A DNA stretch of 64,000 nt from Candidatus Yanofskybacteria bacterium RIFCSPHIGHO2_01_FULL_41_26 (GTDB taxonomy: Bacteria; Patescibacteriota; Minisyncoccia; 2-02-FULL-40-12; GWA2-44-9). The notes beneath the pieces are model-generated. The model was not told the origin of the DNA, did not search any database, and was given only the letters and a program-made list of their open reading frames with translations. The translations under genes were made by a program, and so were the position numbers. This document shows, piece after piece, positions 17,419-53,144 of this stretch. Location: the NCBI GenBank assembly GCA_001794055.1, contig MGJB01000006.1, positions 26,168-90,167 of the forward strand, read 5' to 3'. Every line of letters begins with the position of its first letter. Positions within the stretch are counted from its first letter, which is position 1.

Positions 17419-18981
17419 TCAGGATTTTATCAATGACAGATTGGATCGGCGAGAAGCGCCTTCCCATCGCACATCTGAAAATTTCGGCTCGCCATGAAGC
17501 TCTCGCCATGTTTTTTCATATTCTTTTATTCGCTTAATATCTCGATTTACCATTAATTCTCTGAGGCCGAGCAGCTCAACAGCGGTGAAGTTTTCGCAAA
17601 TGACAGCCGTCATCTTTGTGGCATCTCCTAGATCTGTTAAAAACGCATCCAGGTCGCCGTCATATTGAGCCAGAATTTTATCTTTATATTTGTTGAACCA
17701 TTCTGTGCCCGGATATGGAGTAGCAAAAAAGGGCATAACCTCAATACCGAGCCGTTCCCAAGCCTGAACACAATCAATCAAGCTGTCAAAAAAGTCATCC
17801 GGAAAGCCCATCATTTGATTAGGAATTGGCCGTATCCCTGCTTCCAGGGTTATTTTCAGAGATCTCTCGTTAGTTTCTGGAGTAGAACCTTTGCCTACAT
17901 TTTTAAGAACTCGTTTGGAAAAAGATTCGTAGCCATAAACTAATTGGCAACAGCCGGCATTATGCATCTGTTTAAGAATTTGTGGATTAGCCAGCGCTGC
18001 ATGACTGGTTCCACCCCAGTGTATTCCATGACATTTTTTCGGGTCATGAGACACGCCATCGCGTACACATTGAGGCTGTAAACCCTCTTTGATCCACAGA
18101 TCGCATAAAGCTGGCAGCCAGGTATTCTTTGAAGCAGAATTCATTGCCAGAAGGTTTTCATCATAGAAAATAATGAAATCAACTCCAAATCTGTCTCTCA
18201 TGTGTTTGACCATATCTACCAGATAACGAGGACTGTGCATTCTATTAATACGGTCGTGAGTAAAAACAACATCAGCTTTATCATTTCTTTGATCTTCATA
18301 CTGAAGGTCTCCTGCCAATCCAAGATGAAAACAGAAACGGCATATAAACGGACAACCGAAACTTCCATTTACATCCATGCGTCTTTTGGCGGTGAAACTT
18401 TCTTCGCTATAAAGGAGCGCACTGTTTTTGAAATATATTTCCATAGGCAGCATATCCCATGTCGGATATGGTAATTGATCAATGTCTTGAACAAGAGGCC
18501 GCGGCGGATTTAAATGTAATTGTCCCCTCTCATCCTTCCAGATAATTCCAAGCGTAGATGACCAATCGGTTTTTTTATCGTCTATTTTTTGCATTATTTC
18601 CGGCAGAGTTAAGAATGCTTCTCCAACAACTCCAATATCGATCTCCGGCAAGAGTTCCATCAAGTCTCGAGGCATACTGGTTAAAAGTCCGCCTCCGACC
18701 ATGCGAAGCGATCGAGGAGAATATTGTTTGGCATACCGGAGGGCTTTTTTTACCCAGCTGTATGTAGTTGTTATGCCACCAAGCCCGATAATATCCCAAT
18801 CATCGGCCTTCAAAATCGCACAAATGGTTTTATCATCAGGCCTCCAAGCGTTGGCATCAAATAATTGGACATGATGCCCCTCTTTATCAGCAATCGCCGC
18901 CAACTGGGCAATTCCGTAAGGAATATGTTTTGGGTTGTCTTCTTGGCGTACAACGGGGTTAATGAGCAGAATTTTGGCCAT
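17419..18981 (-). CDS. Cobalamin-binding (class B) radical SAM protein, copy 1.
   Basis: N-terminal B12-binding Rossmann-like domain (KILLINPV...IIGLGGITT...MVGGGLLTS). Radical SAM cluster motif CPFICRFC (CxxxCxxC). The ORF track start at 18999 is a TTG. The in-frame ATG at 18981 is preceded by GGAGAAAGAG and abuts the upstream gene stop, so it is preferred. Confidence 0.75.
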   Translation of the reverse strand: MAKILLINPVVRQEDNPKHIPYGIAQLAAIADKEGHHVQLFDANAWRPDDKTICAILKADDWDIIGLGGITTTYSWVKKALRYAKQYSPRSLRMVGGGLLTSMPRDLMELLPEIDIGVVGEAFLTLPEIMQKIDDKKTDWSSTLGIIWKDERGQLHLNPPRPLVQDIDQLPYPTWDMLPMEIYFKNSALLYSEESFTAKRRMDVNGSFGCPFICRFCFHLGLAGDLQYEDQRNDKADVVFTHDRINRMHSPRYLVDMVKHMRDRFGVDFIIFYDENLLAMNSASKNTWLPALCDLWIKEGLQPQCVRDGVSHDPKKCHGIHWGGTSHAALANPQILKQMHNAGCCQLVYGYESFSKRVLKNVGKGSTPETNERSLKITLEAGIRPIPNQMMGFPDDFFDSLIDCVQAWERLGIEVMPFFATPYPGTEWFNKYKDKILAQYDGDLDAFLTDLGDATKMTAVICENFTAVELLGLRELMVNRDIKRIKEYEKTWRELHGEPKFSDVRWEGASRRSNLSLIKS

Positions 18982-18982
18982 A

Positions 18983-20050
18983 TTATTCTCTTTCTCCAAC
19001 CCTTGATCCTACTAACTCTTGATTATTTCTCTGACTGAATTTAGATAAGAATTCAGTCAGAGGGACGAAATGAACCAGTTCATCAAAAAGTATGCCGCCT
19101 TCAGTGCAATTGTATGTAATGCAACCAGCATCTTTGGCTAAATCCAGAAAAATATTCCGATACCAAAGATATGCCGGATCGGTATACCATGTCTCATTCA
19201 AGTAGGGATTATAAACCTGTGTAAAAGCCTCTGGCGTTCTATCTCCAAAAAGAGCAACAAGATCTCGGTAGTATTGAGTATTGAGAAGCGGAGTACCAGG
19301 CGCATAGCTTAAATCCATACCAACCAACGCAACATGTTTTCGTTTTAGTATTGCATGCGCAAAAATCCAAGCAGCAGTTCCAACATTGCCGCCGGTAAGC
19401 ATACAAGGTATGTGATTATTCTCAAAAAGCTCCCTGGAAAGACTCTCCGATTTGTCATAATCTTCATAAATAGGATTCCACCAATACAGTTCCATTCCCG
19501 ATTCCACGCATCTTTCCGTAACAGAAATATCGACACTGGTAGATATTATCAACTTGATCTTGGGACCATATCGGTTTACAAGCTCGATAGTTTCACGATT
19601 ATAGCGAATCTGATCTTGGTGATGACCAGGATCAAGATCTTGGCGAAGAAAATAATCATCTTCTAATCCCTTGTCCATTTTAGTATCGCCAAACAATCTT
19701 ACCATGCGGTGGCTTCTACCAAATGCGCCAGGATCAAGCGTAATAACAAAATGAGGAATAAGACCCTTTCTTAAACAATGCCCTAAAGACCCGTCGGCGA
19801 CAATAATATCACCAGAAAATCCTGAAGCCAAAATCTTAGCCACAGGATTTTTTCTATGCAAACTTGGTCCTCCAACAACTACAATAGCGGCTCCTTTCGG
19901 CTCCAAATGTTCTATAACAGACAAATCATCCACCGTTTTACTAAAATATTTTCGATTTTTAGCGGCATTATCCAGACCAAGCCGGCCGGTTTTTATAGCT
20001 GTCGCTTCGCTCATATAACAAGCAAGTTTATCTGCCAAATTAGATATCAT
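18983..20050 (-). CDS. DUF115/MptE-like (Maf-type) Rossmann-fold protein, putative nonulosonic-acid glycosyltransferase.
   Basis: Region GAAIVVVGGPSLHRK...DIIVADGSLGHCLRKGLIPHFVITLDPG resembles the DUF115 core of motility-accessory-factor glycosyltransferases. It is adjacent to the nonulosonic-acid module. The ORF track start at 20104 is a TTG without SD. The ATG at 20050 follows GGAGAGG and is preferred. Confidence 0.45.
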   Translation of the reverse strand: MISNLADKLACYMSEATAIKTGRLGLDNAAKNRKYFSKTVDDLSVIEHLEPKGAAIVVVGGPSLHRKNPVAKILASGFSGDIIVADGSLGHCLRKGLIPHFVITLDPGAFGRSHRMVRLFGDTKMDKGLEDDYFLRQDLDPGHHQDQIRYNRETIELVNRYGPKIKLIISTSVDISVTERCVESGMELYWWNPIYEDYDKSESLSRELFENNHIPCMLTGGNVGTAAWIFAHAILKRKHVALVGMDLSYAPGTPLLNTQYYRDLVALFGDRTPEAFTQVYNPYLNETWYTDPAYLWYRNIFLDLAKDAGCITYNCTEGGILFDELVHFVPLTEFLSKFSQRNNQELVGSRVGERE

Positions 20051-20336
20051 CTTTAGTTCCTCTCCAAGTAAAATCTTTCTTAACAAACGTGATGCTGCCA
20101 CCAAGTTTTTTTAAAGCCGCGGCTTCAAATTCTTCTCCCAATGAAACCGGCTTTTCTTCTTTTGGCGCATCTGTATCTTTTAATCCCGGAATCTTATAGT
20201 TCCCCTTTAAAATTTTGTCCATTGTCCAGTTCCTTTTTAAATTGTCAAAAATCTAAGCTGTCTGTCACCATACAACAAAAACCATCGTTTTTCAAGACAG
20301 GTTGTAAAAACATCTTTTTTGTGAAAGAATTTGGGA

Positions 20337-22112
20337 ATGTATTTTAATTCTCCGGATAATCTTCCAGAATCAGAAAAAAAATATGAATATCTGCATTCGA
20401 AAGAAAGAATAGAACACTTGCGTCGTATTATTAACGGCCGGCCCGTGGCCATTTTGGCCGCTGGCCCCTCAATCAGTGAATTAGAAGCAAGAATCGAAGA
20501 ACTATCTCAAACCGATATTTGTTATTTTGGGATGAATTTCTTTTTTGTTCAAGAAGATAATATTTTAAAAAAGATAAATAAGCGTTTTTCCGTGTTAACT
20601 ACGGGAGCCAATAAGGGTTTGCTCCATGTTTACGGCGGGGCCAGCCTTTTTGATAGGATCACTGATTTTTTGAATAGAAATGATGATAATTTGTTAATTT
20701 CCAGTTTCTACGGAAACCAGCTTAATCTGCTTGGTCCCCACTTTAACCTGCAGGAATTTTTAGATAAATATAACAATAAACTCTTTTTCCCCAGCTATAG
20801 TACCAATAGAACTGTTCCGGACAACAATCGTCCCATGCATTTCTTCGCGAGTAATTCTCTCGCCGGACTAATATATATGGCCATAATCGGCAAGGCCTCT
20901 AAAATTGTTCTGTTCGGATCAGACGGCTACACCCTTGAAAAAAATCCTGAAAAAACGTATTACCGTTCCAAAGAATATCTCTCTAACAAATATGAGTATG
21001 AGAGAAATAATCAACAGAAACTAGTGGAACCGCTTATTAACGACGCTAACAAGCTCTTCAACCCTATTGTTCCCCTTTCTTTGCGAAATATCTACAAAAC
21101 CTACCCCATTAAACCTGTTCCAATTTTAAATTGTTCCGAAGTTAGTTATTATACTCCTTTTCCAAAGACCTCATACAACGACACTTTTGCCTTCTTGTTG
21201 GGTAAAAAGAATATTGAAGAAATTGTTGATCTCCGCATCCCAACAGCCTCAATCATCATTCCGTCTTCCGACGACACAAATGAATTGCGGACCACTCTGG
21301 AAAGTATTGCAAAACAATCATATTCAAATTATGAGACAGTCGTTATCAAAAGGAGTCCAAATTTTTTGGATACTATGGAAAACGCCCTATCCTTGACCAA
21401 AGGAAAATATATTTTCTATTGCCATTCGGGCTACGGCTACCGAGACCAAGATTGGTTAAATTCCTGCATAGCAATATTGGAAAATAGGCCCCGGATTTCT
21501 TTAGTATGCGGCATACCCGAAAACCAGCTTACTGACCCTCCCTGGCCGGAAAAAAAGTTCCTCTATTACTGGCTCAAGAAAAAGATTTTCTTCCCTCCAA
21601 ACACAATTTGCGTACGAAAAAAAGTACTCGAAAAATGCCTGCTCCCCCAGGAAGATAATGCAAAAACCGACACTGAATTGGAAAGTTGGCTAAACTTTAA
21701 TCTGCGCTTTAATATTAACGGCTATCTGCCTACTTTTATTTCGACGGTTTCCGATAATAATCGGAATGACTTCATCGACGGTAATTCGCTAGATATTTTC
21801 AGAAAAAAAATTGCATTCTACAGAAAAGGCCTCATTCTTAAAAAAACCTGTCATCATTTCAGAGACGGTGACGACAACATTTTACCTGGAAAATTCTATT
21901 TGAGCATGTTTTTACTATATAAACCAGCTAAAATAATTGAAACCAAATTACTCTGTCCTTTATATCCTCGTTTAAACATTATTAAGCGAATCGCCAGAAA
22001 TACTGTCAAGCAAATAGTCCTACGGATATTAAGTTTAACTTCGTCTTCCATTGAGCGAAAAGCTGTCAATTTGTATCGATCCCTAAAGAAAAAAAGGTTG
22101 CGCGAAAAATAA
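20337..22112 (+). CDS. Two-domain protein: N-terminal DUF115/Maf-like domain plus C-terminal GT2-like glycosyltransferase domain.
   Basis: The N-terminus GRPVAILAAGPSISELEARIE...GANKGLLHVYGGAS parallels the neighbouring DUF115 protein. The C-terminal half has a GT2 signature: ASIIIPSSDDTNELRTTLESIAKQSYSNYETVVI...GKYIFYCHSG. The ORF track begins at a TTG at 20331. The first ATG is at 20337. Confidence 0.5.
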   Translation: MYFNSPDNLPESEKKYEYLHSKERIEHLRRIINGRPVAILAAGPSISELEARIEELSQTDICYFGMNFFFVQEDNILKKINKRFSVLTTGANKGLLHVYGGASLFDRITDFLNRNDDNLLISSFYGNQLNLLGPHFNLQEFLDKYNNKLFFPSYSTNRTVPDNNRPMHFFASNSLAGLIYMAIIGKASKIVLFGSDGYTLEKNPEKTYYRSKEYLSNKYEYERNNQQKLVEPLINDANKLFNPIVPLSLRNIYKTYPIKPVPILNCSEVSYYTPFPKTSYNDTFAFLLGKKNIEEIVDLRIPTASIIIPSSDDTNELRTTLESIAKQSYSNYETVVIKRSPNFLDTMENALSLTKGKYIFYCHSGYGYRDQDWLNSCIAILENRPRISLVCGIPENQLTDPPWPEKKFLYYWLKKKIFFPPNTICVRKKVLEKCLLPQEDNAKTDTELESWLNFNLRFNINGYLPTFISTVSDNNRNDFIDGNSLDIFRKKIAFYRKGLILKKTCHHFRDGDDNILPGKFYLSMFLLYKPAKIIETKLLCPLYPRLNIIKRIARNTVKQIVLRILSLTSSSIERKAVNLYRSLKKKRLREK

Positions 22113-23238: not shown

Positions 23239-25122
23239 ATGAGGTCCTCTGATCTGGGAATGATAGCAAATATTTCTCATGCTTTTCGTCCAAATATAAC
23301 CTTAGAAATGTTTCGAAGAATGTGCCTAATCAGATATTTCGAGTTAAATGTAAAGAAAGCATATGACCAAGGATTGATGCCAAAGGCTCCAATTTATCTT
23401 TCTATTGGGCAGGAGACAATTTTTGCAGCCTTATCCATGATTTTTGAAAAAACAGCTTTATTCGGCCAACACAGAGGACATGGCATTTACCTAGCATTCG
23501 GAGGCAATCCAGTAAAACTCATTGACGAGTTACTTGGCCGACCTACCGGTTGTGCCAAAGGCATGGGAGGTTCAGCATCTATTCACTGCCCTGAAATAGA
23601 GATGATCGGTCACGACGGATTGATGGGAACACAAGTTGCTGACGCCGTTGGCAGTACATTGCCTTATAAAGAGACGGCTATTACTTTTATGGGCGATGCT
23701 AGCGCTGAAGAGGGATTTGTTCTTGGGCCAATCGGTTATGCGTTTACCAAACAACTTCCGGTTCTTTTTGTTGTTTGTGATAATGGACTGTCTATTTTAA
23801 CAAAAACAGAAGTTCGCCGAAGCTGGACCATGGCAAGACATGCTCACTTTGGCATGCCATCAATTGATATTACCGACGATCCATGGCTGATAATGCACTA
23901 TGCCAAAGAGTTAAGTAATCCCCTACCCGCTTTAATGAATATTAGAGTTTGCCGAGAACTTTGGCATGCTGGAACAGGAAAAGACAGTGAACCAGAATGG
24001 AATCGATTTAAAATGGTAAGAGAAGAGATGAGACAATTAGACCTTGGCGTATCGGTTGAAACCATAGAAAACGAAATAAAAAGGTGGATAGACAACTTAT
24101 GGGATAAAAAACTTCAAGAACCAACTCCTTGTATATTATCCCCCAGAAAAGTATTTACCATCATTGATCCGAATTACAAATATGAAAGAAACCCGATTCC
24201 TCCACCCAGCAGAATGAAAGTAAAAGAGGTGATTAAGACTTTTACTCGTGATACTTTAAAACGTGGCGGTAAAGCAATGGGCCAATGCCTAACTGCTGTA
24301 GGTTGGGTAGGCGGAACAGTGCCGGAAATGACGGAACAGGAAGGATTGATTGAATTGTCGATGGATGATACATCTGGTTCGGGAATCGCCGTTGGCTGTT
24401 CCAGAAAAGTACCGACTATTTACATAGTCCGCTATCAAGGATTCCAGTGGTTCAACGGCGCATTCATTGCTAACCTTGCCGCAAAATCAAAAGAAATGTG
24501 GGGCATTTCCCGCAGATTATTTGTCCGTTCCATCGCCATGGAGGGCGGTATCGGACCCGTAGCATCTAACAGTCATCACGGAATGTTCACAAGGATACCT
24601 GGTCTCACGGTTGTTGCTCCGATGACACCCGGAGAATACCTACAAATTGTTGAGTATTTTAATAGCCACGATGATCCGATGTATGTAAGCGAGCACAGAA
24701 AAAGTTTTGACATTGATTGTGAGATGCCGGATGTTATAAATCATCCTTCTCACATCACCTTATTTCCAATATCCGCAGCAAGATTAAACACCGCAGAAGC
24801 GGCAAATATTCTTCTGAAAGAAGGGATAATTTGCAACATAATTCATGTTCTTTGGCTTAAACCATTTATTATCAGCAGTGAAATACTGACATCTTTAGAA
24901 AATTCTTACTACGGGGGCGTGGTCCTTGATACCGATTACGAAAACGGAGCCGCAAAATGCATTGCCTGCGATATTATGCAATTTACAAAAAAGAGGGTCC
25001 GTGTTCTCGGTCTTGAAGAAAGAACTGCCGGATTTGCCCCGCACCTTGACAACCTACCGCCATCTACAGAAAAAATATGTGAATGTATACGAAAAATAGT
25101 TGATGGCAAGCAAGAAAAATAA
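23239..25122 (+). CDS. Thiamine-diphosphate-dependent enzyme, a fused 2-oxoacid dehydrogenase E1 alpha plus beta (transketolase-like) polypeptide.
   Basis: N-terminal half has the TPP motif GDASAEEGFVLG...VLFVVCDNG (GDG-X25-NN type). C-terminal half (from about aa 330) has a transketolase pyrimidine-binding/E1-beta-like region (GGIGPVASNSHHGMF...). The fusion is 627 aa. Confidence 0.7.
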   Translation: MRSSDLGMIANISHAFRPNITLEMFRRMCLIRYFELNVKKAYDQGLMPKAPIYLSIGQETIFAALSMIFEKTALFGQHRGHGIYLAFGGNPVKLIDELLGRPTGCAKGMGGSASIHCPEIEMIGHDGLMGTQVADAVGSTLPYKETAITFMGDASAEEGFVLGPIGYAFTKQLPVLFVVCDNGLSILTKTEVRRSWTMARHAHFGMPSIDITDDPWLIMHYAKELSNPLPALMNIRVCRELWHAGTGKDSEPEWNRFKMVREEMRQLDLGVSVETIENEIKRWIDNLWDKKLQEPTPCILSPRKVFTIIDPNYKYERNPIPPPSRMKVKEVIKTFTRDTLKRGGKAMGQCLTAVGWVGGTVPEMTEQEGLIELSMDDTSGSGIAVGCSRKVPTIYIVRYQGFQWFNGAFIANLAAKSKEMWGISRRLFVRSIAMEGGIGPVASNSHHGMFTRIPGLTVVAPMTPGEYLQIVEYFNSHDDPMYVSEHRKSFDIDCEMPDVINHPSHITLFPISAARLNTAEAANILLKEGIICNIIHVLWLKPFIISSEILTSLENSYYGGVVLDTDYENGAAKCIACDIMQFTKKRVRVLGLEERTAGFAPHLDNLPPSTEKICECIRKIVDGKQEK

Positions 25123-29248: not shown

Positions 29249-29276
29249 AAAGAACTCCGAATGAGTTCTTTTTTAT
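29247..29276. terminator. Bidirectional rho-independent terminator between convergent genes: aaaagaactc-cgaat-gagttctttt.
   Basis: 7-10 bp stem flanked by an A-run upstream and a T-run downstream, so it is symmetric. It lies exactly between the stop at 29248 (+) and the stop at 29276 (-). Confidence 0.55.
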
Positions 29277-31368: not shown

Positions 31369-31385
31369 GAATAAGGAGAGATTAG

Positions 31386-32135: not shown

Positions 32136-32161
32136 TAAACCCTGTAAAGTGATACAACATG

Positions 32162-40658: not shown

Positions 40659-40663
40659 TGTTT

Positions 40664-40689
40664 AACGGACTTGTAAAAGTCCGTTTTTT
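40664..40689 (+). terminator. Rho-independent terminator: aacggac-ttgtaaa-gtccgtt plus TTTTTT.
   Basis: 7-bp stem 6 nt after the stop, followed by a T-tract. Confidence 0.5.
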
Positions 40690-40722
40690 GTTATTTAATA
40701 AACCCAGTTATTTAACATCGGG

Positions 40723-44408: not shown

Positions 44409-45554
44409 CTACAGCCTGCCTTCAGCAATAGCAATGAGCTTATCGGCAACTACCTTAGTAGCTTTTTCAGTCGGTGCTTGCCAATTTACAAGTAATTGTT
44501 TTTGAATAGCCGGATCAAGCGCTTTTTCTATCTCCGGACCAACTTGGTCAGCCGACCAGGCGACTAGAGATTGTCCGGTTCGGATATCGGGCAAATATGG
44601 TCTTGTCTGGCCCAATTCTTTCTCGAACCATCTTTGTGCCAATGGCCCGCAAAGATGAACCACCGGCGGCCCGCCCATCATCACATTCTTGATATCTTCG
44701 GTGCAGGTAACGGACAAGATCACATCAGAGGCAAGGCACAAATCTTCAGCTCGCATATTTCTCATGTCGTCGTTATCTTGAACAATAATAGTATCGGGTA
44801 CGCATATTTCCAACATTTTCCTTAATTCCTCTACATAGCCGGCACTTACGGTTTGGTTGAGCTTGGGGTGAATTCTTGGAACAAGCCGAATATTACCCGC
44901 TTTTTCCAATGATTCTAACTCGGAAAGATAGCTTAAACCATGAAACAACATGCATACATCCTCCGAAATTACGTCGAGCATACCTTGCGACCACCAAAGG
45001 ATAACAATATCTTCTTCCGGAAGCCGGCATAATGTTTCACGAGCTTTTAGTCTAATTTCTTTTTTTTGGGGAATATAATCTAGGACACTGTCAAATGCGG
45101 GCTGGCCGACAATTACTATTCCTCGCGGATCAAGTTTAGGACGAAGCCTCCTTATCGCTTGAGCATGACCTTCGTTTATTGCAAACCAATAAAGGCGATT
45201 ATCATAAGGCACGACCCGCCATTTTGAAAAACCATGATTAAATAAGCCATCCGAACCCATCACGACCAAAGCATTGCCAACCGTATCCAAAAGAACCCGC
45301 TCTTCCAGTTTTGAGGCACTGGCGCATGTATTTATAAAAACCAAATCCGCAGAATCGAGAAGTTCTTTTGTTAATTCTGAATTTACATCTGTTCGAAAGA
45401 ATATTCCGGCCTTTTTAAGAACATCGGCTCCGTTTCCTTCGGGATCAGCCAGCATATCAACCGCATGACCCCGAGCGACAAGATCTTGTCTTACCGGCAA
45501 CTGATAGGTAGCCCCACCAATATCGCCACTGACAAAAACAAACTTTTTTGTCAA
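44409..45554 (-). CDS. Hypothetical protein, possibly a GT-B/epimerase-like Rossmann fold. It is conspicuously G+C-richer than its neighbours.
   Basis: 381 aa. Alternating beta-alpha pattern (FVFVSGDIGG..., IVIVGQPAFD...). No recognisable signature. Codon usage is rich in GCC/CGG/CTG-type codons, unlike the surrounding AT-rich genes. Confidence 0.3.
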   Translation of the reverse strand: MTKKFVFVSGDIGGATYQLPVRQDLVARGHAVDMLADPEGNGADVLKKAGIFFRTDVNSELTKELLDSADLVFINTCASASKLEERVLLDTVGNALVVMGSDGLFNHGFSKWRVVPYDNRLYWFAINEGHAQAIRRLRPKLDPRGIVIVGQPAFDSVLDYIPQKKEIRLKARETLCRLPEEDIVILWWSQGMLDVISEDVCMLFHGLSYLSELESLEKAGNIRLVPRIHPKLNQTVSAGYVEELRKMLEICVPDTIIVQDNDDMRNMRAEDLCLASDVILSVTCTEDIKNVMMGGPPVVHLCGPLAQRWFEKELGQTRPYLPDIRTGQSLVAWSADQVGPEIEKALDPAIQKQLLVNWQAPTEKATKVVADKLIAIAEGRL

Positions 45555-45649: not shown

Positions 45650-46246
45650 TTATAAATCTCTTTCTATCTGATCGCACAATAAATGAATTATCGTCTGGTG
45701 GGCTTCTTGAATACGAGCAGTATCTGAATGAGGGACAATTACGGGTACATCGACAAGACGTAATAGATTTTTAGTTTTCTCGCTAAACAAACCGATGGTG
45801 ATAGCTCCTTGTTTACGAGCAAACAGAAAACCATTTTCTATGTTTTTAGAATGATCTTCGCTGACATCACTCGTAGTTAAACCAACAACCACATCTCCGG
45901 ACCGACATAATGCTTCAATTTGTCTTGAGAAAACAGAACTGAAACCGGAATCATTGCTTTGGGCAGTGATAATTGATGTATCTGTGGTCAATGCGATTGC
46001 GGCAATAGCTCGTCTTTTCTTCCTAAATTGACAAACTAATTCAGCTACGAAATGTTGGGCTTGAGCGGCAGAACCGCCATTGCCGAATATCAGTATTTTG
46101 CTCCCTTTTCTCGCTGTCAACGACAAAATTTCAGCCGCCTCCAAAATTGAAGAATGGAGTATCTGATCGGCCTGCAGGCTTTGAACTAGAAGAACTGACT
46201 CGTCGAACCACCTCACTATCTCCGATAGATTATCTTGTCGGGTCAT
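45650..46246 (-). CDS. gmhA: Sedoheptulose-7-phosphate isomerase (GmhA; SIS-domain phosphoheptose isomerase).
   Basis: ILIFGNGGSAAQAQHFVAEL...DVVVGLTTS. 198 aa. SIS fold. Confidence 0.8.
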   Translation of the reverse strand: MTRQDNLSEIVRWFDESVLLVQSLQADQILHSSILEAAEILSLTARKGSKILIFGNGGSAAQAQHFVAELVCQFRKKRRAIAAIALTTDTSIITAQSNDSGFSSVFSRQIEALCRSGDVVVGLTTSDVSEDHSKNIENGFLFARKQGAITIGLFSEKTKNLLRLVDVPVIVPHSDTARIQEAHQTIIHLLCDQIERDL

Positions 46247-47220
46247 TAGAAATCCTTTATTCTTCGCAATTTTTTCATCGTTTCTTCTTCTGACGGATGC
46301 ACTTTTTTCAGGCCATTGCCCTGCACCACTTCCAGGCGACGTATCTCATCAACTAAATGCTTGAACTCAGCCGGCTCTAGGCTTGCCTTATGATCACTGC
46401 CCGGCATATTCCGATCAAGAGTAATATGTCTTTCAACCATACACGCTCCCTTAGCCACAGCGCAAAGAGACGGCAAGGTGTTGTTCTCGTGTCCACTGTA
46501 ACCAATAGGCACCCCAGGGAACATAATCTTAAGAGTTTTTATCATATTCAGATTAATTTCATCATCCTTGCAGGGATAATTGGCTACACAATGAAGAATA
46601 ACAAGATCCTCGCGACCCAAAATATCAACGGCTTTGGCGATCTGTTCCATGCTACTTCCGCCAGTGGAAAGTATGACCAGCTTGCCATTATATCTCACCC
46701 GCTTAAGAAGGTCACTGTGTGTTAAACACGCCGAAGCAATCTTGTGGCATGGCACGTTAAAACCATTAATGAAGTGGGCGCTCAAGCCGTCCCAGCTTGA
46801 AGCAAACCACATAATGCCCTTTTCCTGGCAGTATTGGTCTATGATGTCGTATTCTTTCATATTAAATTCAAGAGCATACTTAAGATCGCCATTAGTGGTG
46901 TTGGTTATATCCTCACGCAACCTTTGAACCGCGGAATCATCGGGGAAAACTTCCCACTCAACGCCCTCAATATTCATTCTTGCAAAAGCTTTATGAATAA
47001 TACTAGGGTCAACTTTTCGGAACTTGTTCAGCTCTTCCTTGGAATACACAACATTTACGGTTCTTTTTTGAAATTTTACGGCGTCACAGCCGGCCGCAAT
47101 AGCCGCATCAATCAACTTTTTAGTAATCTCCAAACTGCCATTATGGTTAATTCCGATTTCAGCAACCATAAAACATGGATAACCAGGACCAATTAATTTA
47201 TTTCCTATCCTGACAACCAT
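46246..47220 (-). CDS. Second NeuB-family synthase (nonulosonic/ulosonic acid synthase paralog) with SAF domain.
   Basis: FMVAEIGINHNGSLEITKKLIDAAIAAGCDAVKFQKRT. 324 aa. C-terminal SAF-like tail. Clearly paralogous to the gene at 12873-13919. Confidence 0.8.
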   Translation of the reverse strand: MVVRIGNKLIGPGYPCFMVAEIGINHNGSLEITKKLIDAAIAAGCDAVKFQKRTVNVVYSKEELNKFRKVDPSIIHKAFARMNIEGVEWEVFPDDSAVQRLREDITNTTNGDLKYALEFNMKEYDIIDQYCQEKGIMWFASSWDGLSAHFINGFNVPCHKIASACLTHSDLLKRVRYNGKLVILSTGGSSMEQIAKAVDILGREDLVILHCVANYPCKDDEINLNMIKTLKIMFPGVPIGYSGHENNTLPSLCAVAKGACMVERHITLDRNMPGSDHKASLEPAEFKHLVDEIRRLEVVQGNGLKKVHPSEEETMKKLRRIKDF

Positions 47221-47324
47221 TTAATCCTCGGATTTGATGTAAATGAACTTGACAAGAACAATAAGATAAAAAAGCCGGCCTATCAATATTGACTTAGTAA
47301 ATTAATATGGTATTAATTGAGACT

Positions 47325-48164
47325 CTATGTGACGGTCAATCCGCCGTCTATAATAATATTTTGACCGGTAATATAAGAGGATGAGTCTGACGCCAAAAAA
47401 ATAATTGCGCCAGTCAAGTCGGTTGGATGCCCCATTCTTTTAAGTAAGATCTTTTTATAAAGCCGTTCCAAAACTGGATTCTTGGAAGTAATAGAATTAT
47501 AAGTTTTTCCTTCTAAATTAGGAATGGCCCCCGGAGAAACGGCATTGACTCTTACTTCTGGGCTTAAAAAAGAAGCGGAATATTTTGTAAATTGTAACAA
47601 ACCAGCTTTAGCCATACTGTACCCCGGCGGATTAAATTTATCAGTCCCCTCATAAAGGTCTGGGCCTGGAACAACTACTCCGTACATTGAACAAACATTA
47701 ATTATGGAACCAGCACCCCTCTTTTTCATTGGATAGCCTAATATTTGAGTAGCATGAATCGCCCAATATATCCCCGATTCAAAAGATGCCTTAAGCTGAT
47801 CATGGGTCGCATTCTCAAGCTTGCCGCTTGGATCATTAAAACCAGTTTTCAAACTGAAGTCGAAAGCATTATTAATCAGAACATCAATTTTTTTGACTTT
47901 TTTTAATATTTTTTTATACGATGTTTCGGTATTTTTATGGTCATACAAGTCAACCTCGCACCAATCTAGTTTACTTTTTCCGTATTTTTTCCCTAATTCT
48001 TTTTTAAAATCTAAACCTGTGCCAGGCCTGTCTATAACTATTAATCTGTCGGCTCCTTGGTCTAATACTGCCTTAGAAAAATATTTGCCAAAAAAGCCGG
48101 CGCCGCCAGTTAATAAAACCGTTTTCCCTTTTAAGCTAAACGGGGCAAGTTTATTTTTTTTCAT
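47325..48164 (-). CDS. SDR family oxidoreductase.
   Basis: VLLTGGAGFFGKYFSKAVL. YSMAKAGL (YxxxK). Confidence 0.75.
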   Translation of the reverse strand: MKKNKLAPFSLKGKTVLLTGGAGFFGKYFSKAVLDQGADRLIVIDRPGTGLDFKKELGKKYGKSKLDWCEVDLYDHKNTETSYKKILKKVKKIDVLINNAFDFSLKTGFNDPSGKLENATHDQLKASFESGIYWAIHATQILGYPMKKRGAGSIINVCSMYGVVVPGPDLYEGTDKFNPPGYSMAKAGLLQFTKYSASFLSPEVRVNAVSPGAIPNLEGKTYNSITSKNPVLERLYKKILLKRMGHPTDLTGAIIFLASDSSSYITGQNIIIDGGLTVT

Positions 48165-48738
48165 ATTTGTTATAAATATTTTCGTAATCCTCCCCTCTTG
48201 TTTTCATAATAACATCACACACTTCTCTTACCGCATGATCTCCACCCCTCTTTGTCGTTACATAATCAGCAATTTTTTTGCATTGTTCTGCGCCATCAGC
48301 AACGGTAAGAGCCAAGCCGGCATCTTCTAAACAGTCAAGATCGTTCAGGTCATCTCCCATAAAAGCAGCCTCGCTGGCTTTAAGTTTTTCGCGCTTAATC
48401 AAATTCCTAAATATTGGTAGTTTTTCATTACCGACCAAACACTCAATTTTTAGCTTCTCGCAGCGTTTCATTACAATAGGATTAGGCTCCATAGAGATCA
48501 CTGCTAGCTTGATACCAATCCTTTTTAATTGATTAGTTCCCAAACTATCTCGCCGGCTGCAAATAATACTCTCTCGACCATCTTGGTCAATTATAACTTT
48601 CGCATCAGTAAAAATACCATCAAAATCGAAGGCCATAAGTTTTATATTTTTTATTTTTTTAGCAAGTTCGGCTGAAATTTTCACGTAATTAAAGTAGCAT
48701 AATAATCGGTTTCTGTCTACATAAAAAAGCGCCAACAA
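48151..48738 (-). CDS. HAD-IIIA phosphatase, KdsC-like (3-deoxy-ulosonate-phosphate phosphatase family), copy 1.
   Basis: LMAFDFDGIFTDAKV (DxDGxxTDG motif of the KdsC/YrbI family). GDDLNDLDCLEDAG motif. Confidence 0.7.
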   Translation of the reverse strand: MLALFYVDRNRLLCYFNYVKISAELAKKIKNIKLMAFDFDGIFTDAKVIIDQDGRESIICSRRDSLGTNQLKRIGIKLAVISMEPNPIVMKRCEKLKIECLVGNEKLPIFRNLIKREKLKASEAAFMGDDLNDLDCLEDAGLALTVADGAEQCKKIADYVTTKRGGDHAVREVCDVIMKTRGEDYENIYNKYEKK

Positions 48739-48750
48739 ATTAAGCCGACG

Positions 48751-49362
48751 CTATATATTATCCCTATACTTAAAATAAAGAAATACTATCGAAACTAAAA
48801 TTAGGGTATTCATGGAGGAGATTATTTTAAGCGGCAAATTGCCAAAGGCAAAGTAAAAAGTCACCCAGAAAAATGCCCCCACTAGATAAGCCAGGAAAAG
48901 CTTGATATCCAGAACACTGACATTCTTCTCTTTGTATATCTCCAGCGGTTGCATTGCAAAAGGTATCATACGAAGAAAAGCCAGAGCCATAAAAAAACCC
49001 GTCTTGGCTGGAATTAACACCAGTACGGGCGTCATCAGAAAAAATATCGGAATTAACAATTTCTCAATCCTACTGAAACCCTTAAATTTATATAAGCCCA
49101 CAAGTATTGGCACATGCATTGCAGTCAACAAAACACTCGTAATTGGCATGATTATGCTTCCTATAAAATATCCGTAGACACCGTTTAATAAAAAGAATGC
49201 TGGTGTTGAAGAAAATTTTAGTATGGAAACAGATTGGCCAGATTTATTTGACCAGATCAGTTTATTTTGAGACCACAATCCGCATGCTTGCCACAAGGTA
49301 AAAATTAGGGTCGCTATAGAACTTAAGGTAAGAATATTCCAGCCTAAATTTTCCAGTTCCAT
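48751..49362 (-). CDS. Hypothetical integral membrane protein (about 6 TM).
   Basis: Multiple hydrophobic helices. No recognisable motif. Confidence 0.4.
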   Translation of the reverse strand: MELENLGWNILTLSSIATLIFTLWQACGLWSQNKLIWSNKSGQSVSILKFSSTPAFFLLNGVYGYFIGSIIMPITSVLLTAMHVPILVGLYKFKGFSRIEKLLIPIFFLMTPVLVLIPAKTGFFMALAFLRMIPFAMQPLEIYKEKNVSVLDIKLFLAYLVGAFFWVTFYFAFGNLPLKIISSMNTLILVSIVFLYFKYRDNI

Positions 49363-49364
49363 TT

Positions 49365-50114
49365 CTATAGTTTCCTCGCCTGCTCTAGGATCTTGACTGA
49401 TTCGATCTTGCGCTTTTCAGTTTCTCCCTCACTAAGCATGTTTCCGTCCAAGAACGAGAGTACCTCGGTCCGTTGTCGCGCTAATCCAACTGGCGACTCG
49501 TCAGAAGTATTAAGATATAGAGGGACATATCCAATTGGCGGAACCTCGATCTGCCTAGCTCCGCGTAAATAACCTTCGAAGTCAAAAACGCTGGCATTGG
49601 TAATATTTCCCACTGTTTCTATCTCTCTAAGACGATAATTAATTCTTCGCCTAACGGTTTCTAGGTCACAATAGAAATAAATGCATCGAAAATCTACTTC
49701 TACCGATAGTTCGGGCATCGACCAGCCGGCCTGTTCTGCTTCTTCTTTTTCAATAGATTGTAAATAAAAACTCGCGCTTTTGATCATTTCCACGAAAGGC
49801 CTCTGGTGCGCTTCCCGAGTCAGCATTACCATCTCCGTGAAAATGGCGAACGGTCTTTCAACAATCAATTTGGACTTTATTTCAAATCTAGTTGCCTCAT
49901 TCTTGAAAACATGACTGCTTTTTGTTATTTCAGTATCGCTCTTATCGCCCCATAGACGCTTGCGAATATCATCCATGGCTACCATTGAAGCTTCTTTATA
50001 CTCCGGTAAGCCCATTACCCAATTCCTGAAAAATGATTTTCCGCTGAAAACCAAGCCCGAGAAAACGGCAACAAGGATTCGACGCTGGTGGCTAACGACC
50101 ACTTGATCCTCCAT
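49365..50114 (-). CDS. Hypothetical P-loop NTPase/kinase.
   Basis: Walker A-like GLVFSGKS near the N-terminus. Otherwise unassigned. Confidence 0.35.
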   Translation of the reverse strand: MEDQVVVSHQRRILVAVFSGLVFSGKSFFRNWVMGLPEYKEASMVAMDDIRKRLWGDKSDTEITKSSHVFKNEATRFEIKSKLIVERPFAIFTEMVMLTREAHQRPFVEMIKSASFYLQSIEKEEAEQAGWSMPELSVEVDFRCIYFYCDLETVRRRINYRLREIETVGNITNASVFDFEGYLRGARQIEVPPIGYVPLYLNTSDESPVGLARQRTEVLSFLDGNMLSEGETEKRKIESVKILEQARKL

Positions 50115-50215
50115 TTAAGATTTTCAAAGAATTATCATGGTTATAACAATAATTATTTCGCTTGTCAAATCATATTTCTTGTGTTATTTTTCTTGTGTTA
50201 ACTACTCCCCCAATT

Positions 50216-50737
50216 ATGAACTCGGCCAGCAAGAATCTGCTCAAAAAGTTAAAAAAACTTAAGCTCATAGCTTTTGATTTTGATGGTATCTTTACTGATG
50301 GCAAGGTTATTACTAACCAAGACGGAATTGAACGTATACTCTACAGTTCAAAAGATGACCAGGGTATTAAAAATCTAAAAAAACAAGGACTCAGATTGGT
50401 CGTAATTTCAAAAGAACCCAATTCAATAGTTGCCATAAAATGTAAAAAAACAGGCATTGAATATGCCCACAATATTTTGGATAAATTAAGTTTATTTAAA
50501 AAAATACTGCACAAGTATGGAATAAAACCCTCTGAAGCCGCTTTTATGGGAGATGACTTCAACGACTTAGAATGCATGAGATATGCTGGTGTTTCGTTTA
50601 CTGTTGTCGATGCTTATCCGGCTTGCCTTGACGTAGCTGACTATACGACCAAAAGCAGCGGTAACCATACTATAAGTGAAATAGTTGATCTGATTATTGG
50701 CGCCAAACAAAAAGCTCACAGTAAAGTGAGCTCATAA
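50216..50737 (+). CDS. HAD-IIIA phosphatase, KdsC-like, copy 2.
   Basis: LIAFDFDGIFTDGKV. GDDFNDLECMRYAG. The ORF track start at 50162 is a TTG. The ATG at 50216 is in frame and more plausible. Confidence 0.7.
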   Translation: MNSASKNLLKKLKKLKLIAFDFDGIFTDGKVITNQDGIERILYSSKDDQGIKNLKKQGLRLVVISKEPNSIVAIKCKKTGIEYAHNILDKLSLFKKILHKYGIKPSEAAFMGDDFNDLECMRYAGVSFTVVDAYPACLDVADYTTKSSGNHTISEIVDLIIGAKQKAHSKVSS

Positions 50738-50743
50738 TAGACC

Positions 50744-51307
50744 TTAGCGAAGGCTCTTGGCCTCAAGTATTAAGTCGCAGACCTCCCTAACGGCCCGATC
50801 ACCGCCATCTCGCTTTGTAATATGCAGAGAAACTAATTTTGCTTCTGGTAAGGCATCGGCAACCGTAGCAGGAAAGCCAACTGCCCTAAGAACAGGCAGA
50901 TCGCTTATATCATCTCCCATATAACAAACCTCATCGAGACTTATGTCCGGATGTTTTTCATTTAGCCAACTTTGCAGCCCTGCAAGTTTATCACTTACCT
51001 TTACACAGGGAATACCTAGTTTGAAACAACGGGCATCTACATATCCGCTGCGCTGTTTGGTAACAACAACGACATGAATGCCGGCTTCTTTCATTAAATC
51101 AATTCCCTGACCGTCCCGATGGTTAAATCTTGCAATCTCAATTACATGCTGAAACTTACGGTCATTATGCTTCATCGCATGTTCAAGATCCATAATTACT
51201 CCGGTGTCTAAATGAAGCGGGGCCATAATACCATCGCAATCAAGAGCAAGAACTTTTATGTTTCGGAGTTTATCGAGTAATTTTTTGTCCATGCATGACT
51301 CCTTCAA
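50744..51307 (-). CDS. HAD-IIIA phosphatase, KdsC-like, copy 3 (divergent).
   Basis: VLALDCDGIMAP...VVVVTKQRSG...GDDISDLPVLRAVG. Confidence 0.65.
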   Translation of the reverse strand: MKESCMDKKLLDKLRNIKVLALDCDGIMAPLHLDTGVIMDLEHAMKHNDRKFQHVIEIARFNHRDGQGIDLMKEAGIHVVVVTKQRSGYVDARCFKLGIPCVKVSDKLAGLQSWLNEKHPDISLDEVCYMGDDISDLPVLRAVGFPATVADALPEAKLVSLHITKRDGGDRAVREVCDLILEAKSLR

Positions 51308-51419
51308 TTAATTTGGTAAGGTTCAATTTATCCGCAAGATATATCACTAATATTGTGTTTAGTCAACTTTGTGATAGTATGTCCGTAAGCACATTTAAAA
51401 ATATGAGGGAGGACTAGTA

Positions 51420-53144
51420 GTGTCAAAAATAATAACCCTGACTAAGGCCGACAAAAACGGAGATCCGTGCAACACTGTCCACCCAGCCGACATTATCAAA
51501 GACATAAAACCTAAAGACATTGAAGGAGTAAATTTACTTTTTATCAACATGCCTCTTCGGGAAACGGCCGTTCCCAACACTACCCCTGAAGGACCACTAT
51601 TGATGGCGACTAACCTTAGAGACAATTACGGCGTCAACGCTACGATAGTAGACCTCAACGCTTACAGAATAAAAGATGAGACTGCAAACCAAAGAAACTT
51701 GCCCAACGGTAGGCACAAGACCCAGCAAGAGGCTTGTGACTTAATTGAAAAACACACCAAAATCCATGGGGAACCTGATGTTGTAGCTTTGTCGGGAATG
51801 ATCACAACTTTGAGCTGGCAAGAGACCATCTCTCAATTCATAAGACGGTCATTACCAAATTCTTTCCTTGTCTCCGGCGGCGGATTAGCAACTGATCTGA
51901 AAACGGGTCTTTTTAATTACATCCCTGAACTTGATGCCATAGCCCATTCGGAAGGTGACGATGTAATAGTAAAAATTTGCCACGACGCAAAGATTATAAG
52001 ACAAAATGGATTTAACAGCGCTTTAAATTCCAGAAAACTTGATCCGTATTATCTTGGACATATTAATAATCGACACCGTCTGATGTACGCCGGCTACAGA
52101 CCTCGCAGTCTAGATGCTATTCCCTTTGCAGATTTGGAATTCCTGCGGGAAGATGTTAATGGATTCAGAGTGCTTGATTATTATTTGGGCAACGCCGTTT
52201 GGGGCATGTCTGCCAATAACAGTTCGGCAGCGCCATTTACAATGACTATAAGCACGACATCGGTCTCCAGCCGAGGATGTCCGTTTGCCTGTAATTATTG
52301 CGACAGACAAGCTCAGGGCGAGAGAAATTGGGGTATTAGGTCAGCAGAACATATTTACGCAGAAATGATCCATCATTTTATGAAATACCATATTGATTTT
52401 AAAGGTTTTCCGGACGATAACTTCGCTGTCGCAATTCCCAGGATCGAAGAACTTGTACCACTACTCGGGCCTTTGGGGATATCATGGGGAACTCACACGA
52501 GAATGGATGAAGGGGCAGATCCTCGAAGAATCAAGCCCATGGCTCAAGCAGGATGTATTTATATTGGCTTTGGACCCGAGAGTGCAAACGCCAAAGACTT
52601 GGTAGCGATTAATAAGGGCGGTCACACACTTTCGAATGGATTCGAAGAGTGTAAAGTGTTTGGCAAAACATATAACTTTCCTAAATCCATGACGATTGCA
52701 ACAAGAAACTGCCTGGAATTTGGAATTCATGCAAACTGTACCTACATTATGGGAATTCCCGGACAAACATTAGAAAGTTTAAAAGATACGGTGGGTTTTA
52801 TGGCGTGGCAAGAAGAAGAGTATGCAAAATATGGGATCCCGGCTGAAGCAGTAAACAAGCGAATGTTTACCTTAACAGCTTATCCCACAGAACTGATGAA
52901 AGTACCTATAGTACAAGATAAATTACGCAAGGTTTTCGGAATCAATTTTGATCCTGAAACTCATATGCCAATTTGCGACGATAATTTTCATAAATACTGT
53001 CGAGAATTAGATGACGCAACAAAGATAATGCATGATCCGCTAACCGGTGAGCCGTTAAATTACAGTGATATTCCCATAGATCAATTTCTTCAGGCTAGGG
53101 AACATATCGACTCCGGCCAGACATTAAAGATATTGGATATGTAA
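51420..53144 (+). CDS. Cobalamin-binding (class B) radical SAM protein, copy 5.
   Basis: B12-binding-like N-terminal domain (LLFINMPL...VVALSGMITT...VSGGGLAT). Radical SAM motif GCPFACNYCDRQ. GTG start 6 nt after GAGGGAGG SD. Candidate promoter TTGTGT/TAGTAT upstream. Confidence 0.7.
   Translation: MSKIITLTKADKNGDPCNTVHPADIIKDIKPKDIEGVNLLFINMPLRETAVPNTTPEGPLLMATNLRDNYGVNATIVDLNAYRIKDETANQRNLPNGRHKTQQEACDLIEKHTKIHGEPDVVALSGMITTLSWQETISQFIRRSLPNSFLVSGGGLATDLKTGLFNYIPELDAIAHSEGDDVIVKICHDAKIIRQNGFNSALNSRKLDPYYLGHINNRHRLMYAGYRPRSLDAIPFADLEFLREDVNGFRVLDYYLGNAVWGMSANNSSAAPFTMTISTTSVSSRGCPFACNYCDRQAQGERNWGIRSAEHIYAEMIHHFMKYHIDFKGFPDDNFAVAIPRIEELVPLLGPLGISWGTHTRMDEGADPRRIKPMAQAGCIYIGFGPESANAKDLVAINKGGHTLSNGFEECKVFGKTYNFPKSMTIATRNCLEFGIHANCTYIMGIPGQTLESLKDTVGFMAWQEEEYAKYGIPAEAVNKRMFTLTAYPTELMKVPIVQDKLRKVFGINFDPETHMPICDDNFHKYCRELDDATKIMHDPLTGEPLNYSDIPIDQFLQAREHIDSGQTLKILDM

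Follow-up and report, generated by a model that had tools for sequence, protein, structure and literature searches.

Five class-B radical SAM genes in a glycan locus

The 64-kb stretch of DNA analysed here (the window) belongs to Candidatus Yanofskybacteria, of the candidate phyla radiation (CPR; Parcubacteria), and carries five genes for class-B radical S-adenosylmethionine (rSAM) enzymes, designated R1 to R5, together with a sixth, HemN-like rSAM gene. Open reading frame (ORF) listing and Pfam scans showed that the whole window is a single glycan-biosynthesis region; it probably belongs to a still larger super-locus for cell-envelope glycans, which measures ~80 kb or more in this genome. The rSAM genes fall into three gene modules: module A with R1 (17419-18981, minus strand, 520 aa), module B with R2 (29276-30643, minus strand, 455 aa), R3 (32270-34153, plus strand, 627 aa), the HemN-like gene (34212-35597, plus strand, 461 aa) and R4 (38514-40658, plus strand, 714 aa), and module C with R5 (51420-53144, plus strand, 574 aa) at its core. 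Identical copies of window proteins are present on contig MGKG01000028.1 (GCA_001794675.1) and on several metagenome contigs, some of them from anammox reactors. R2-R5 were deposited under two 'Candidatus Yanofskybacteria' metagenome-assembled genomes (MAGs; locus tags A2915_ and A2649_), where their annotation goes no further than 'hypothetical', 'uncharacterised' or 'radical SAM core domain-containing'; the exact sequence of R5 is OGM98956.1 (A2915_03260, Ca. Yanofskybacteria).

A preliminary description of this DNA had listed five ORFs in which a B12-binding domain is followed by an rSAM domain, and this architecture was borne out by Pfam, by the CxxxCxxC motif and by two AlphaFold models. 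PF04055 (Radical_SAM) was matched in all five proteins (E = 1e-11 to 4e-20; 46.6, 72.9 and 45.3 bits for R1, R2 and R5, respectively), and the N-terminal B12-binding domain (PF02310) scored 59, 44.1 and 32.8 bits in R1, R3 and R2, all at or above the gathering threshold of 32.1. Each protein contains a single CxxxCxxC motif (CPFICRFC in R1, CPYNCHFC in R2, CRAHCRFC in R3, CPYQCTYC in R4 and CPFACNYC in R5), which is invariant within the R1 and R5 family alignments. The models of R5 (pLDDT 89.4) and R1 (pLDDT 88.7) superpose on full-length TsrM, OxsB, TokK, CysS and MgmA, the best fold matches being TsrM, OxsB, AprD4, TokK, CysS and MgmA for R5 and TsrM, OxsB, AprD4, MgmA and TokK for R1. Alignment of R4 to TokK begins at residue 39 and includes the cobalamin domain, and the TokK B12 domain was also matched by R5 (E = 4e-7) and R2 (E = 2e-6). 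The DxHxxG motif, which is usually absent from class-B methylases, was not found in R1-R5. Given this domain homology, binding and use of cobalamin by the five proteins appear plausible.

The same description regarded the five genes as paralogs, which did not hold in an all-against-all BLASTP comparison: pairwise identities are 19-27%, and no significant full-length alignment was obtained for R4 with R3 or R4 with R5. The five are not each other's closest relatives, as a recent paralog family would be, while orthologs of each rSAM protein in other genomes are 55-84% identical. R4 is far nearer to the antibiotic-pathway methylases TokK of Streptomyces (E = 2e-84) and CysS (E = 2e-47) than to its locus-mates. 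None of R1-R5 reached a curated NCBIfam cutoff and assignment to curated families was consequently rejected; the nearest families differ, namely ApyD and BchE for R1, PhpK and BzaD for R2, Sden_1168 and PhpK for R3, KedN5 for R4, and HpnJ and BchE for R5. As judged by sequence comparison, R1-R5 are five distinct, uncharacterised enzyme families in three independently conserved gene modules and not recent paralogs. The earlier notion of divergent substrate modules is broadly right but understates this situation. Its attribution of the differences in length to C-terminal extensions is partly correct; ~115 residues also precede the B12 domain of R5, and the inter-domain linkers differ.

Three conserved gene modules

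Module B is a CPR-conserved, putative sugar-nucleotide tailoring cassette of 12 genes spanning 14.6 kb (27120-41721), recognised from Pfam matches and synteny, in the order DegT aminotransferase, short-chain dehydrogenase/reductase (SDR), R2, NUDIX, PhyH dioxygenase, R3, HemN-like enzyme, SDR, 4,6-dehydratase-like protein, epimerase, R4 and epimerase. Variants of this cassette are found in six CPR genomes (L005-L010; Yanofskybacteria and other CPR MAGs), where orthologs of R3, the HemN-like protein and R4 are 72-76%, 73% and 55-81% identical, respectively, and in all six the cassette is embedded among genes for nonulosonic acid (NulO) synthesis, amidotransferases, glycosyltransferases (GTs) or flippase-type proteins. 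Orthologs of R2 share 58% identity in L008 and 35% in L009, and those of R3 were found in L006, L007 and L010. The hidden Markov models (HMMs) nearest to R2, PhpK and BzaD, scored far below cutoff, and its rSAM core matched AprD4 (E = 1e-10). R3 scored 117 bits with Sden_1168 (cutoff 575) and 102 bits with PhpK (cutoff 600), its nearest families, both of P-methyltransferases; among solved structures it is nearest to MgmA, the methyl-coenzyme M reductase glutamine C-methyltransferase (PDB 9ccb, E = 4e-10). Unlike these three, R3 has ~200 extra C-terminal residues, and its scores lie far below the family cutoffs; no phosphonate-pathway genes, such as that for phosphoenolpyruvate mutase, were detected among the annotated ORFs of the window.

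R4 aligned with TokK (7kdx) over residues 39-526 (287 bits) and with CysS (9n1b) at 165 bits, and scored 243.7 bits with NCBIfam KedN5 against a cutoff of 700, indicating a distinct subfamily within the TokK/CysS/KedN5 clade of iterative cobalamin-dependent rSAM C-methyltransferases, whose members include the carbapenem C6 side-chain methylases TokK and ThnK and the cystobactamid enzyme CysS. The ~490 residues aligned with TokK run from the cobalamin-binding domain through the rSAM core into part of the C-terminal domain; unlike TokK, R4 has an insertion of ~24 residues (132-155) and a C-terminal stretch of ~190 residues beyond the aligned part. Since R4 is encoded in an NDP-sugar cassette in CPR and not in a β-lactam or aryl-ether antibiotic pathway, its substrate would have to differ from those of the characterised enzymes. 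R4 has 2565 homologs, and the named ones among the best 120 come from Yanofskybacteria or generic 'bacterium' MAGs. All seven of its genome matches are CPR or unclassified MAGs, and species-representative genomes with R4 relatives comprise Yanofskybacteria, Nomurabacteria, a Saccharibacteria-labelled MAG and an unclassified 'bacterium'.

The HemN-like protein passes the TIGR00538 hemN model (348.7 bits, cutoff 324.95) and contains the HemN_C domain, in common with HemN, the oxygen-independent coproporphyrinogen III oxidase, and HemN-like class-C rSAM methyltransferases. In the NCBI annotation the gene is a coproporphyrinogen III oxidase of 445 aa, read from an internal ATG; the upstream GTG is favoured by its Shine-Dalgarno (SD) site (34200-34204) and by orthologs in L007 and L010, which are likewise 461 aa long, 73% identical and located within the cassette, with ATG at the equivalent position. 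Unlike HemN, the protein is a conserved member of a sugar cassette in other CPR genomes, and no haem genes were present among the annotated ORFs of the window. Since haem-pathway neighbours are missing and cassette membership is conserved, a role in haem synthesis seems doubtful and a non-haem role likely.

Module A consists of three closely packed genes on the minus strand, encoding a conserved 60-aa small protein (20040-20222), an MptE-like or Maf-like (DUF115) protein (18983-20050; PF01973, 48.4 bits against a gathering threshold of 34.6) and R1. The small-protein ORF overlaps the start of the MptE-like gene by 11 nt, and the stop of the latter lies 1 nt before the ATG of R1; the MptE-like gene likely starts at ATG 20050 rather than at TTG 20104. 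R1 starts at ATG, and the TTG of its ORF at 18999 is not the start: homologs 60-83% identical in CPR, Elusimicrobia, Chloroflexota, Nitrospirota and Rokubacteria show a nearly invariant M1-A2-K3. Its best family HMM is that of ApyD (94 bits), an enzyme of ribosomally synthesised and post-translationally modified peptides (RiPPs), with BchE next and rSAM_ocin_1 also matched, all far below their cutoffs, and the MptE-like protein scored 25.7 bits with the flagellin-modification PseD model (FlagModPseD; cutoff 670). In four of five genomes (the window, L018/L019, L020 and L023) the MptE-like gene lies directly upstream of the R1 homolog, and in the fifth the R1 homolog precedes NeuB and NeuC; a small ORF just upstream was found in all five, which represent at least four phyla. 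The homologous small ORFs, of 55-73 aa, occupy the same position as in the window (L018, 6781-6987; L020, 52-219; L023, 4777-4986; L024, 5730-5951) and share the pattern LKGNY ... KLGGSIxFVxK ... WxG with 16 invariant positions (alignment A3). The small protein matched no Pfam family and has ~20 stand-alone clusters of small homologs. A weak resemblance of its C-terminal half to a strand motif that recurs in giant Ig-like surface proteins was noted; these matches were set aside as too weak, given the short strand-like motif. In the genomes examined, the neighbours of the R1 locus are always sugar genes, encoding NeuB, NeuC, GTs, sulfotransferase or sulfate-activation proteins.

Directly downstream of module A, and in the same orientation, lies an operon of the legionaminic/pseudaminic acid (Leg/Pse) type (8834-17269, minus strand) with Pfam matches for a dehydratase, DegT, an acetyltransferase, NeuC, NeuB, a CMP-transferase and a WbuX/HisH/HisF amidotransferase, of which WbuX scored 390 bits with TIGR03573, above cutoff. 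Module A would accordingly be a translationally coupled trio heading a legionaminic-acid-type operon, with the Maf/MptE-like protein as a putative nonulosonic-acid transferase. A pterin-pathway reading of the MptE-like and B12-rSAM pair, an idea drawn from analogy with methanopterin methylation, was judged less likely and dropped, since the pair lies in a glycan or NulO locus in each of the five genomic contexts. With its complete-looking Leg/Pse-type set, the WbuX/HisH/HisF amidotransferase and MptE/Maf-like proteins, the window resembles the flagellin glycosylation islands of the Campylobacter/Helicobacter type, which combine Leg/Pse pathways with Maf transferases; unlike those islands, it contains no flagellar genes, and neither do its flanks.

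In module C, R5 is directly followed by a gene for a CMP-ulosonic-acid-type cytidylyltransferase (53167-53931, plus strand; CTP_transf_3, PseF/KdsB-like), which scored 144.6 bits with the PseF HMM, below the cutoff of 205.7. The remainder of the module (45650-51307, minus strand except for one HAD gene) encodes, by Pfam and NCBIfam, a GmhA-like SIS isomerase, a short NeuB, an SDR, three KdsC-like HAD phosphatases, a SemiSWEET-like protein and a P-loop kinase-like protein. The order of R5 and CTP_transf_3 recurs in a Parcubacteria genome (L021/L022), in which the R5 homolog also adjoins a short NeuB, an SDR (adh_short), a KdsC-like HAD (Hydrolase_3) and a Glyphos_transf gene, as in the window. 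Wherever named, the carriers of R5 homologs are all CPR, and the nearest HMM is HpnJ (65 bits). Within this module, the second NeuB-like synthase, which has no SAF domain (46246-47220, minus), the three KdsC-like HADs and the SemiSWEET-like membrane protein (48151-48738, minus; 48751-49362, minus; 50162-50737, plus; 50744-51307, minus) point to a possible second, unusual ulosonic-acid pathway beside the Leg-type one. Two R5 homologs, P0136 (919 aa) and P0141 (913 aa), are extended by ~340 residues and contain a LAGLIDADG_3 (PF14528) domain, which suggests that inteins are inserted in these rSAM proteins.

Translation starts, terminators and base composition

The preliminary description noted GTG starts for three of the five rSAM genes and for the HemN-like gene, and these stand up: the GTGs of R2 (30643, minus strand), R3 (32270), R5 (51420) and the HemN-like gene (34212) are the first start codons after a stop, so that no in-frame start further upstream, ATG or other, is possible. 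Ortholog starts, mostly ATG, lie within one codon of the GTGs in the window, and M1 is nearly invariant in alignment A1. GTG was used by 6 of 44 cassette orthologs in other genomes and by 5 of 64 other ORFs; the GTG starts are thus correct but not a conserved trait. Within the window, 6 of the 12 genes of module B start with GTG, against 3 of the 47 others.

Strong SD sites are located 4-8 nt upstream of R2 (GAGAGGGGA, 30651-30659), R3 (GGAGGGAGGG, 32256-32265), R5 (GAGGGAGG, 51405-51412) and R4, an ATG-starting gene (GAGGGG, 38501-38506), with energies of -8 to -12.5 kcal/mol. The sites described earlier as stronger than those of neighbouring genes are real, but they are not specific to the rSAM genes; like GTG, they mark the whole cassette. 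Mean SD energy was -7.2 kcal/mol for module B and -1.9 kcal/mol for the rest of the window (p=1e-4), and in five other CPR genomes -6.4 kcal/mol for cassette orthologs and -2.8 kcal/mol for other ORFs (p=3e-7), with SD energies of -5 or lower at 75% of cassette orthologs, 28% of other ORFs and 11% of random positions. Across 56 cassette genes in six genomes the consensus is the canonical AAGGAG, 4-7 nt from the start, and not an unusually G-rich, GAGGG-type site as first proposed. The flanking housekeeping genes encoding SecA, S30AE and PurD have no SD, and the overlapping genes of the Leg operon (gaps of -41 to +7 nt) are SD-less, with energies near 0. Strong SD sites are hence a property of the whole cassette plus R5 in an otherwise SD-poor genome. 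An anti-SD motif is detectable in only 48% of Parcubacteria 16S rRNAs (Tsurumaki et al. 2022, PMC9297842), a text that does not state whether Yanofskybacteria have it. For translation initiation in Parcubacteria, in some of which the anti-SD is reportedly missing, the division between an SD-led cassette and an SD-poor background is of interest.

Flanking terminators, also part of the preliminary description, were recovered 3' of R1, R3, R4 and R5 and 5' of R3 and R4. A hairpin with a U-tract lies at 17370-17391 (minus strand) behind R1 (-10.9 kcal/mol, z -3.4); hairpins with U-tracts bracket R3 (32161-32182 and 34146-34161) and R4 (38422-38442 and 40664-40685), and another follows R5 (53143-53164). 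The rSAM-flanking terminators fold at -9.4 to -12.3 kcal/mol (z -3.3 to -5.5), while terminator counts across the whole region are only modestly above those of shuffled sequences. Promoter-like sites were not clearly above expectation (64 against 51.9±7.3 and 51 against 44.6±6.7 in shuffled sequences) and were given no weight. The terminators support gene-by-gene transcriptional insulation, and the suggestion of separate regulation is plausible, as R3 and R4 are bracketed by terminators, R1 and R5 are followed by one, and the cassette has its own SD sites and spacers of 14-134 nt beside an SD-less Leg operon. With such spacers, several of which contain terminator hairpins, each cassette gene would need de novo initiation of translation. 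Strong SD sites, GTG starts and terminators may then represent the expression architecture of module B and R5, as independently initiated and terminator-insulated genes, and not a mark of foreign origin, the remaining genome being SD-poor and presumably reliant on translational coupling.

The G+C contents of mid-40s percent for the rSAM genes and mid-30s percent for their surroundings, as estimated at first, could not be reproduced. G+C of the five genes ranges from 0.40 to 0.43, with a mean of 0.416 compared with 0.388 for the other genes of the window (p=0.035). The difference lies in codon position 1 (GC1 0.505 against 0.452, p=0.005) and would reflect amino-acid composition; GC3 is 0.378 against 0.368 (p=0.40). 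In synonymous codon usage the five genes fall inside the null distribution, 95% of random gene sets being at least as distant, and module B ranks 16th of 47 contiguous 12-gene blocks. Calculated per gene, neither GC3 nor codon usage distinguishes the rSAM genes from their flanking genes, and orthologous loci of other CPR genomes have the same G+C as the window (0.39-0.44). G+C, GC1-3 and codon usage gave no signal of foreign origin, and composition offers no evidence that the genes arrived recently from elsewhere.

Putative functions and alternative explanations

Combining gene content, synteny and domain homology, we consider it rather probable that the region is a surface-glycan super-locus in which five non-orthologous class-B rSAM enzymes and a HemN-like rSAM enzyme, organised in three modules, tailor activated sugars. 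The likeliest function of these enzymes would be radical tailoring, chiefly C-methylation, of activated sugars destined for a surface glycan, with scavenged cobalamin. Each rSAM enzyme may use a 5'-deoxyadenosyl radical and methylcobalamin to alkylate or rearrange unactivated carbons of nucleotide-activated sugars; from its homology to TokK and CysS, R4 might methylate an sp3 carbon, possibly iteratively. Module C would constitute a CMP-ulosonic-acid pathway, comprising R5, the CMP-transferase, the short NeuB and the KdsC-like phosphatases, and the glycosyltransferases, flippase and polymerase-type genes of the locus are predicted to place the modified sugars on the cell surface as a glycan or glycoprotein. 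Class-B rSAM enzymes of antibiotic pathways include GenK and GenD1 in gentamicin biosynthesis and Fom3, which acts on a CMP-activated substrate. These enzymes use amino-sugar or cytidylylated substrates, and the conserved adjacency of R5 to a cytidylyltransferase recalls the logic of Fom3. Unlike theirs, the genes of R1-R5 lie in surface-glycan loci and not in antibiotic clusters.

The idea that best survived from the preliminary description is that of an organism needing cobalamin for glycan synthesis, with cobalamin use still deduced from domain homology, and it gains in interest from the organism being a CPR bacterium. CPR bacteria are not generally known to synthesise corrinoids, and cobalamin, if used, would be imported or scavenged.

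Several observations weigh against this interpretation. PF02310 scores are below the gathering threshold in R4 (25.9 bits) and R5 (20.3 bits), and neither a cobalamin riboswitch nor a transporter is visible in the window; no Rfam family, the cobalamin riboswitch included, reached its gathering score in the 64 kb. AprD4, a cobalamin-independent diol-dehydratase, and OxsB, which contracts rings, fit the folds about as closely as the methyltransferases do, and the nearest HMMs of R5 (HpnJ) and R1 (ApyD and BchE) represent no simple methylases. Neither a nucleotidyltransferase nor a glycosyltransferase is encoded in module B, the GT2 gene closest to it being at 41791, and the SD background of this genome is drawn from only seven non-glycan genes.

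Chemistry other than methylation is accordingly the alternative that we take most seriously, although we hold it to be only possible: some or all of the five may not be cobalamin-dependent methyltransferases and could instead catalyse dehydration or deoxygenation as AprD4 does, a ring contraction of the HpnJ or OxsB type, or an oxidation resembling that of BchE, which would change the chemistry and leave the picture of the locus intact. Superposition of the R1 and R5 models on AprD4, which is reported not to use cobalamin, gave TM(target) values of 0.70 and 0.64, and together with OxsB this is about equal to the methylases; the AprD4-like core of R2, the HpnJ match of R5 and the weak B12-domain scores of R4 and R5 point the same way. 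For R1, R2 and R5, the modelled folds do not separate methylation from AprD4-like dehydration or OxsB-/HpnJ-like rearrangement. R4, by contrast, aligns with TokK with the cobalamin domain included, P- and C-methyltransferase families and MgmA come closest to R3, and most characterised class-B members are methylases. A different question is raised by module A, in which a translationally coupled small ORF, MptE-like gene and rSAM gene, conserved across phyla, could form a RiPP-like or protein-modification system, with the 60-aa protein alkylated by R1 or glycosylated by the MptE/Maf-like enzyme; R1 would then not have a free activated sugar as its substrate. The ApyD and rSAM_ocin_1 matches of R1 would fit such a system, as would the Maf-family proteins that glycosylate proteins, namely flagellins. 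We regard it as unlikely: the small protein differs from typical RiPP cores in being conserved over its full length, it has neither a peptidase nor an exporter linked to it, sugar genes are its constant neighbours, and the HMM scores fall far short of their cutoffs.

That module B is a biosynthetic gene cluster for an aminoglycoside- or nucleoside-like natural product, secreted rather than displayed, inside a glycan locus is similarly improbable. Its closest characterised relatives are enzymes of antibiotic pathways (TokK, CysS, KedN5 and AprD4), it combines several rSAM enzymes with a PhyH-type dioxygenase, NUDIX and SDR proteins and no internal glycosyltransferase, and its individual genes are insulated by terminators. 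Yet the same cassette lies among NulO, amidotransferase, GT or flippase-type genes in six of six CPR genomes, a GT2 gene directly follows it in the window, and no 2-deoxy-scyllo-inosose synthase, polyketide synthase, non-ribosomal peptide synthetase, resistance gene or dedicated exporter is encoded inside it; its named carriers are CPR MAGs, and CPR bacteria are generally regarded as small-genome symbionts. Least likely of all is a single paralog family acquired horizontally from a G+C-richer, SD-using donor and then expanded within the locus, a view close to the 'separately acquired' family first proposed and now largely refuted. The five proteins are too dissimilar, with different nearest families, orthologous cassettes in several CPR genomes have equal G+C, and the slight excess of G+C in the rSAM genes, which would favour such a transfer, sits in codon position 1, with GC3 and synonymous codon usage indistinguishable from the remaining genes. 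SD and GTG usage, although unlike that of most neighbours in an SD-poor background, belongs to all 12 cassette genes. The occurrence of the R1 family over several phyla at 60-73% identity does imply past horizontal spread.

For the tailoring of activated sugars by R1-R5, the enzyme class itself is well known, mostly from antibiotic, cofactor and lipid pathways; new are the recruitment of five uncharacterised subfamilies and a HemN-like enzyme to a CPR surface-glycan locus, the synteny of modules A, B and C, the phylum-spanning trio of small protein, MptE-like protein and R1, and the cassette-specific use of SD sites. No description of the three modules was found in the open-access literature searched, and no relevant report linking B12-rSAM enzymes to CPR/Patescibacteria, nonulosonic acids, flagellin glycosylation, legionaminic acid or MptE-like genes was found in this incomplete library, which amounts to absence of evidence only. 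Conserved rSAM cassettes in glycan loci would speak for NDP- and CMP-sugars that are C-alkylated or rearranged, a chemistry for which the literature searched gave no description, with the greatest relevance for ultra-small CPR bacteria, whose surface mediates attachment to the host; organisms regarded as metabolically minimal would then depend on cobalamin. Speculatively, and with considerable doubt, Parcubacteria-type CPR bacteria, with ~1 Mb genomes and no known cobalamin synthesis, might use conserved SD-driven rSAM cassettes to supply their surface glycans with sugars that radical chemistry has C-alkylated or rearranged. Among these would be modified nonulosonic or ulosonic acids and sugars with multiply methylated branches, of ethyl or isopropyl type, from an iterative TokK-like methylase; the B12 would come from the host or community, and the trio of module A might in addition be an unrecognised, phylum-spanning glycan- or protein-modification system. 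The three syntenic, uncharacterised groups, which have hundreds to thousands of homologs, offer targets for enzymology: R1 and its partners, R5 with the CMP-transferase, and the R2/R3/HemN/R4 cassette.

Other genes of the locus

Among the genes surrounding R1-R5, Pfam and NCBIfam searches identified, next to the Leg/Pse-type set, a heptose-type branch (GmhA-like SIS, GHMP kinase and HAD), a GDP-mannose dehydratase, a fused thiamine-diphosphate (TPP)-dependent E1-like enzyme, two SAM methyltransferases and two CMP-transferases, together with assembly- and export-type genes for glycosyltransferases (GT2 and GT4), YfhO, an ABC exporter-type protein and a Wzx-like flippase. On the contig the window is preceded by genes for SecA, the hibernation factor S30AE and PurD (L012/L013), and ~10 kb beyond its end (L015-L017) contain at least seven further GT1/GT4 genes, a DUF268 methyltransferase gene and a GT11-like gene. 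In all, the glycan region exceeds ~80 kb, a large share of a CPR-sized genome.

Divergent from module A, a 593-aa protein (20331-22112, plus strand) with an N-terminal Maf/DUF115-like 'AAGPS' nucleotide-binding motif and a weak C-terminal GT2 match may be a second Maf-like transferase. The fused E1-alpha/E1-beta-like thiamine-diphosphate enzyme (23239-25122, plus strand; E1_dh and Transket_pyr) adjoins GHMP kinase, DJ-1, cupin and HAD genes. By analogy with branched-sugar antibiotic pathways, in which a two-carbon branch is added to keto-sugars, it could catalyse such an addition. An M48-type metallopeptidase gene (SD GGGAG) and a gene for a pyruvoyl-dependent arginine decarboxylase lie amid glycan genes at 2589-3792 (plus strand). 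Finally, two minus-strand ORFs of ~380 aa each, 44409-45554, which has a relatively high G+C of 0.444, and 4488-5636, matched no Pfam or NCBIfam family, and the latter probably encodes a membrane polymerase or ligase-type protein.

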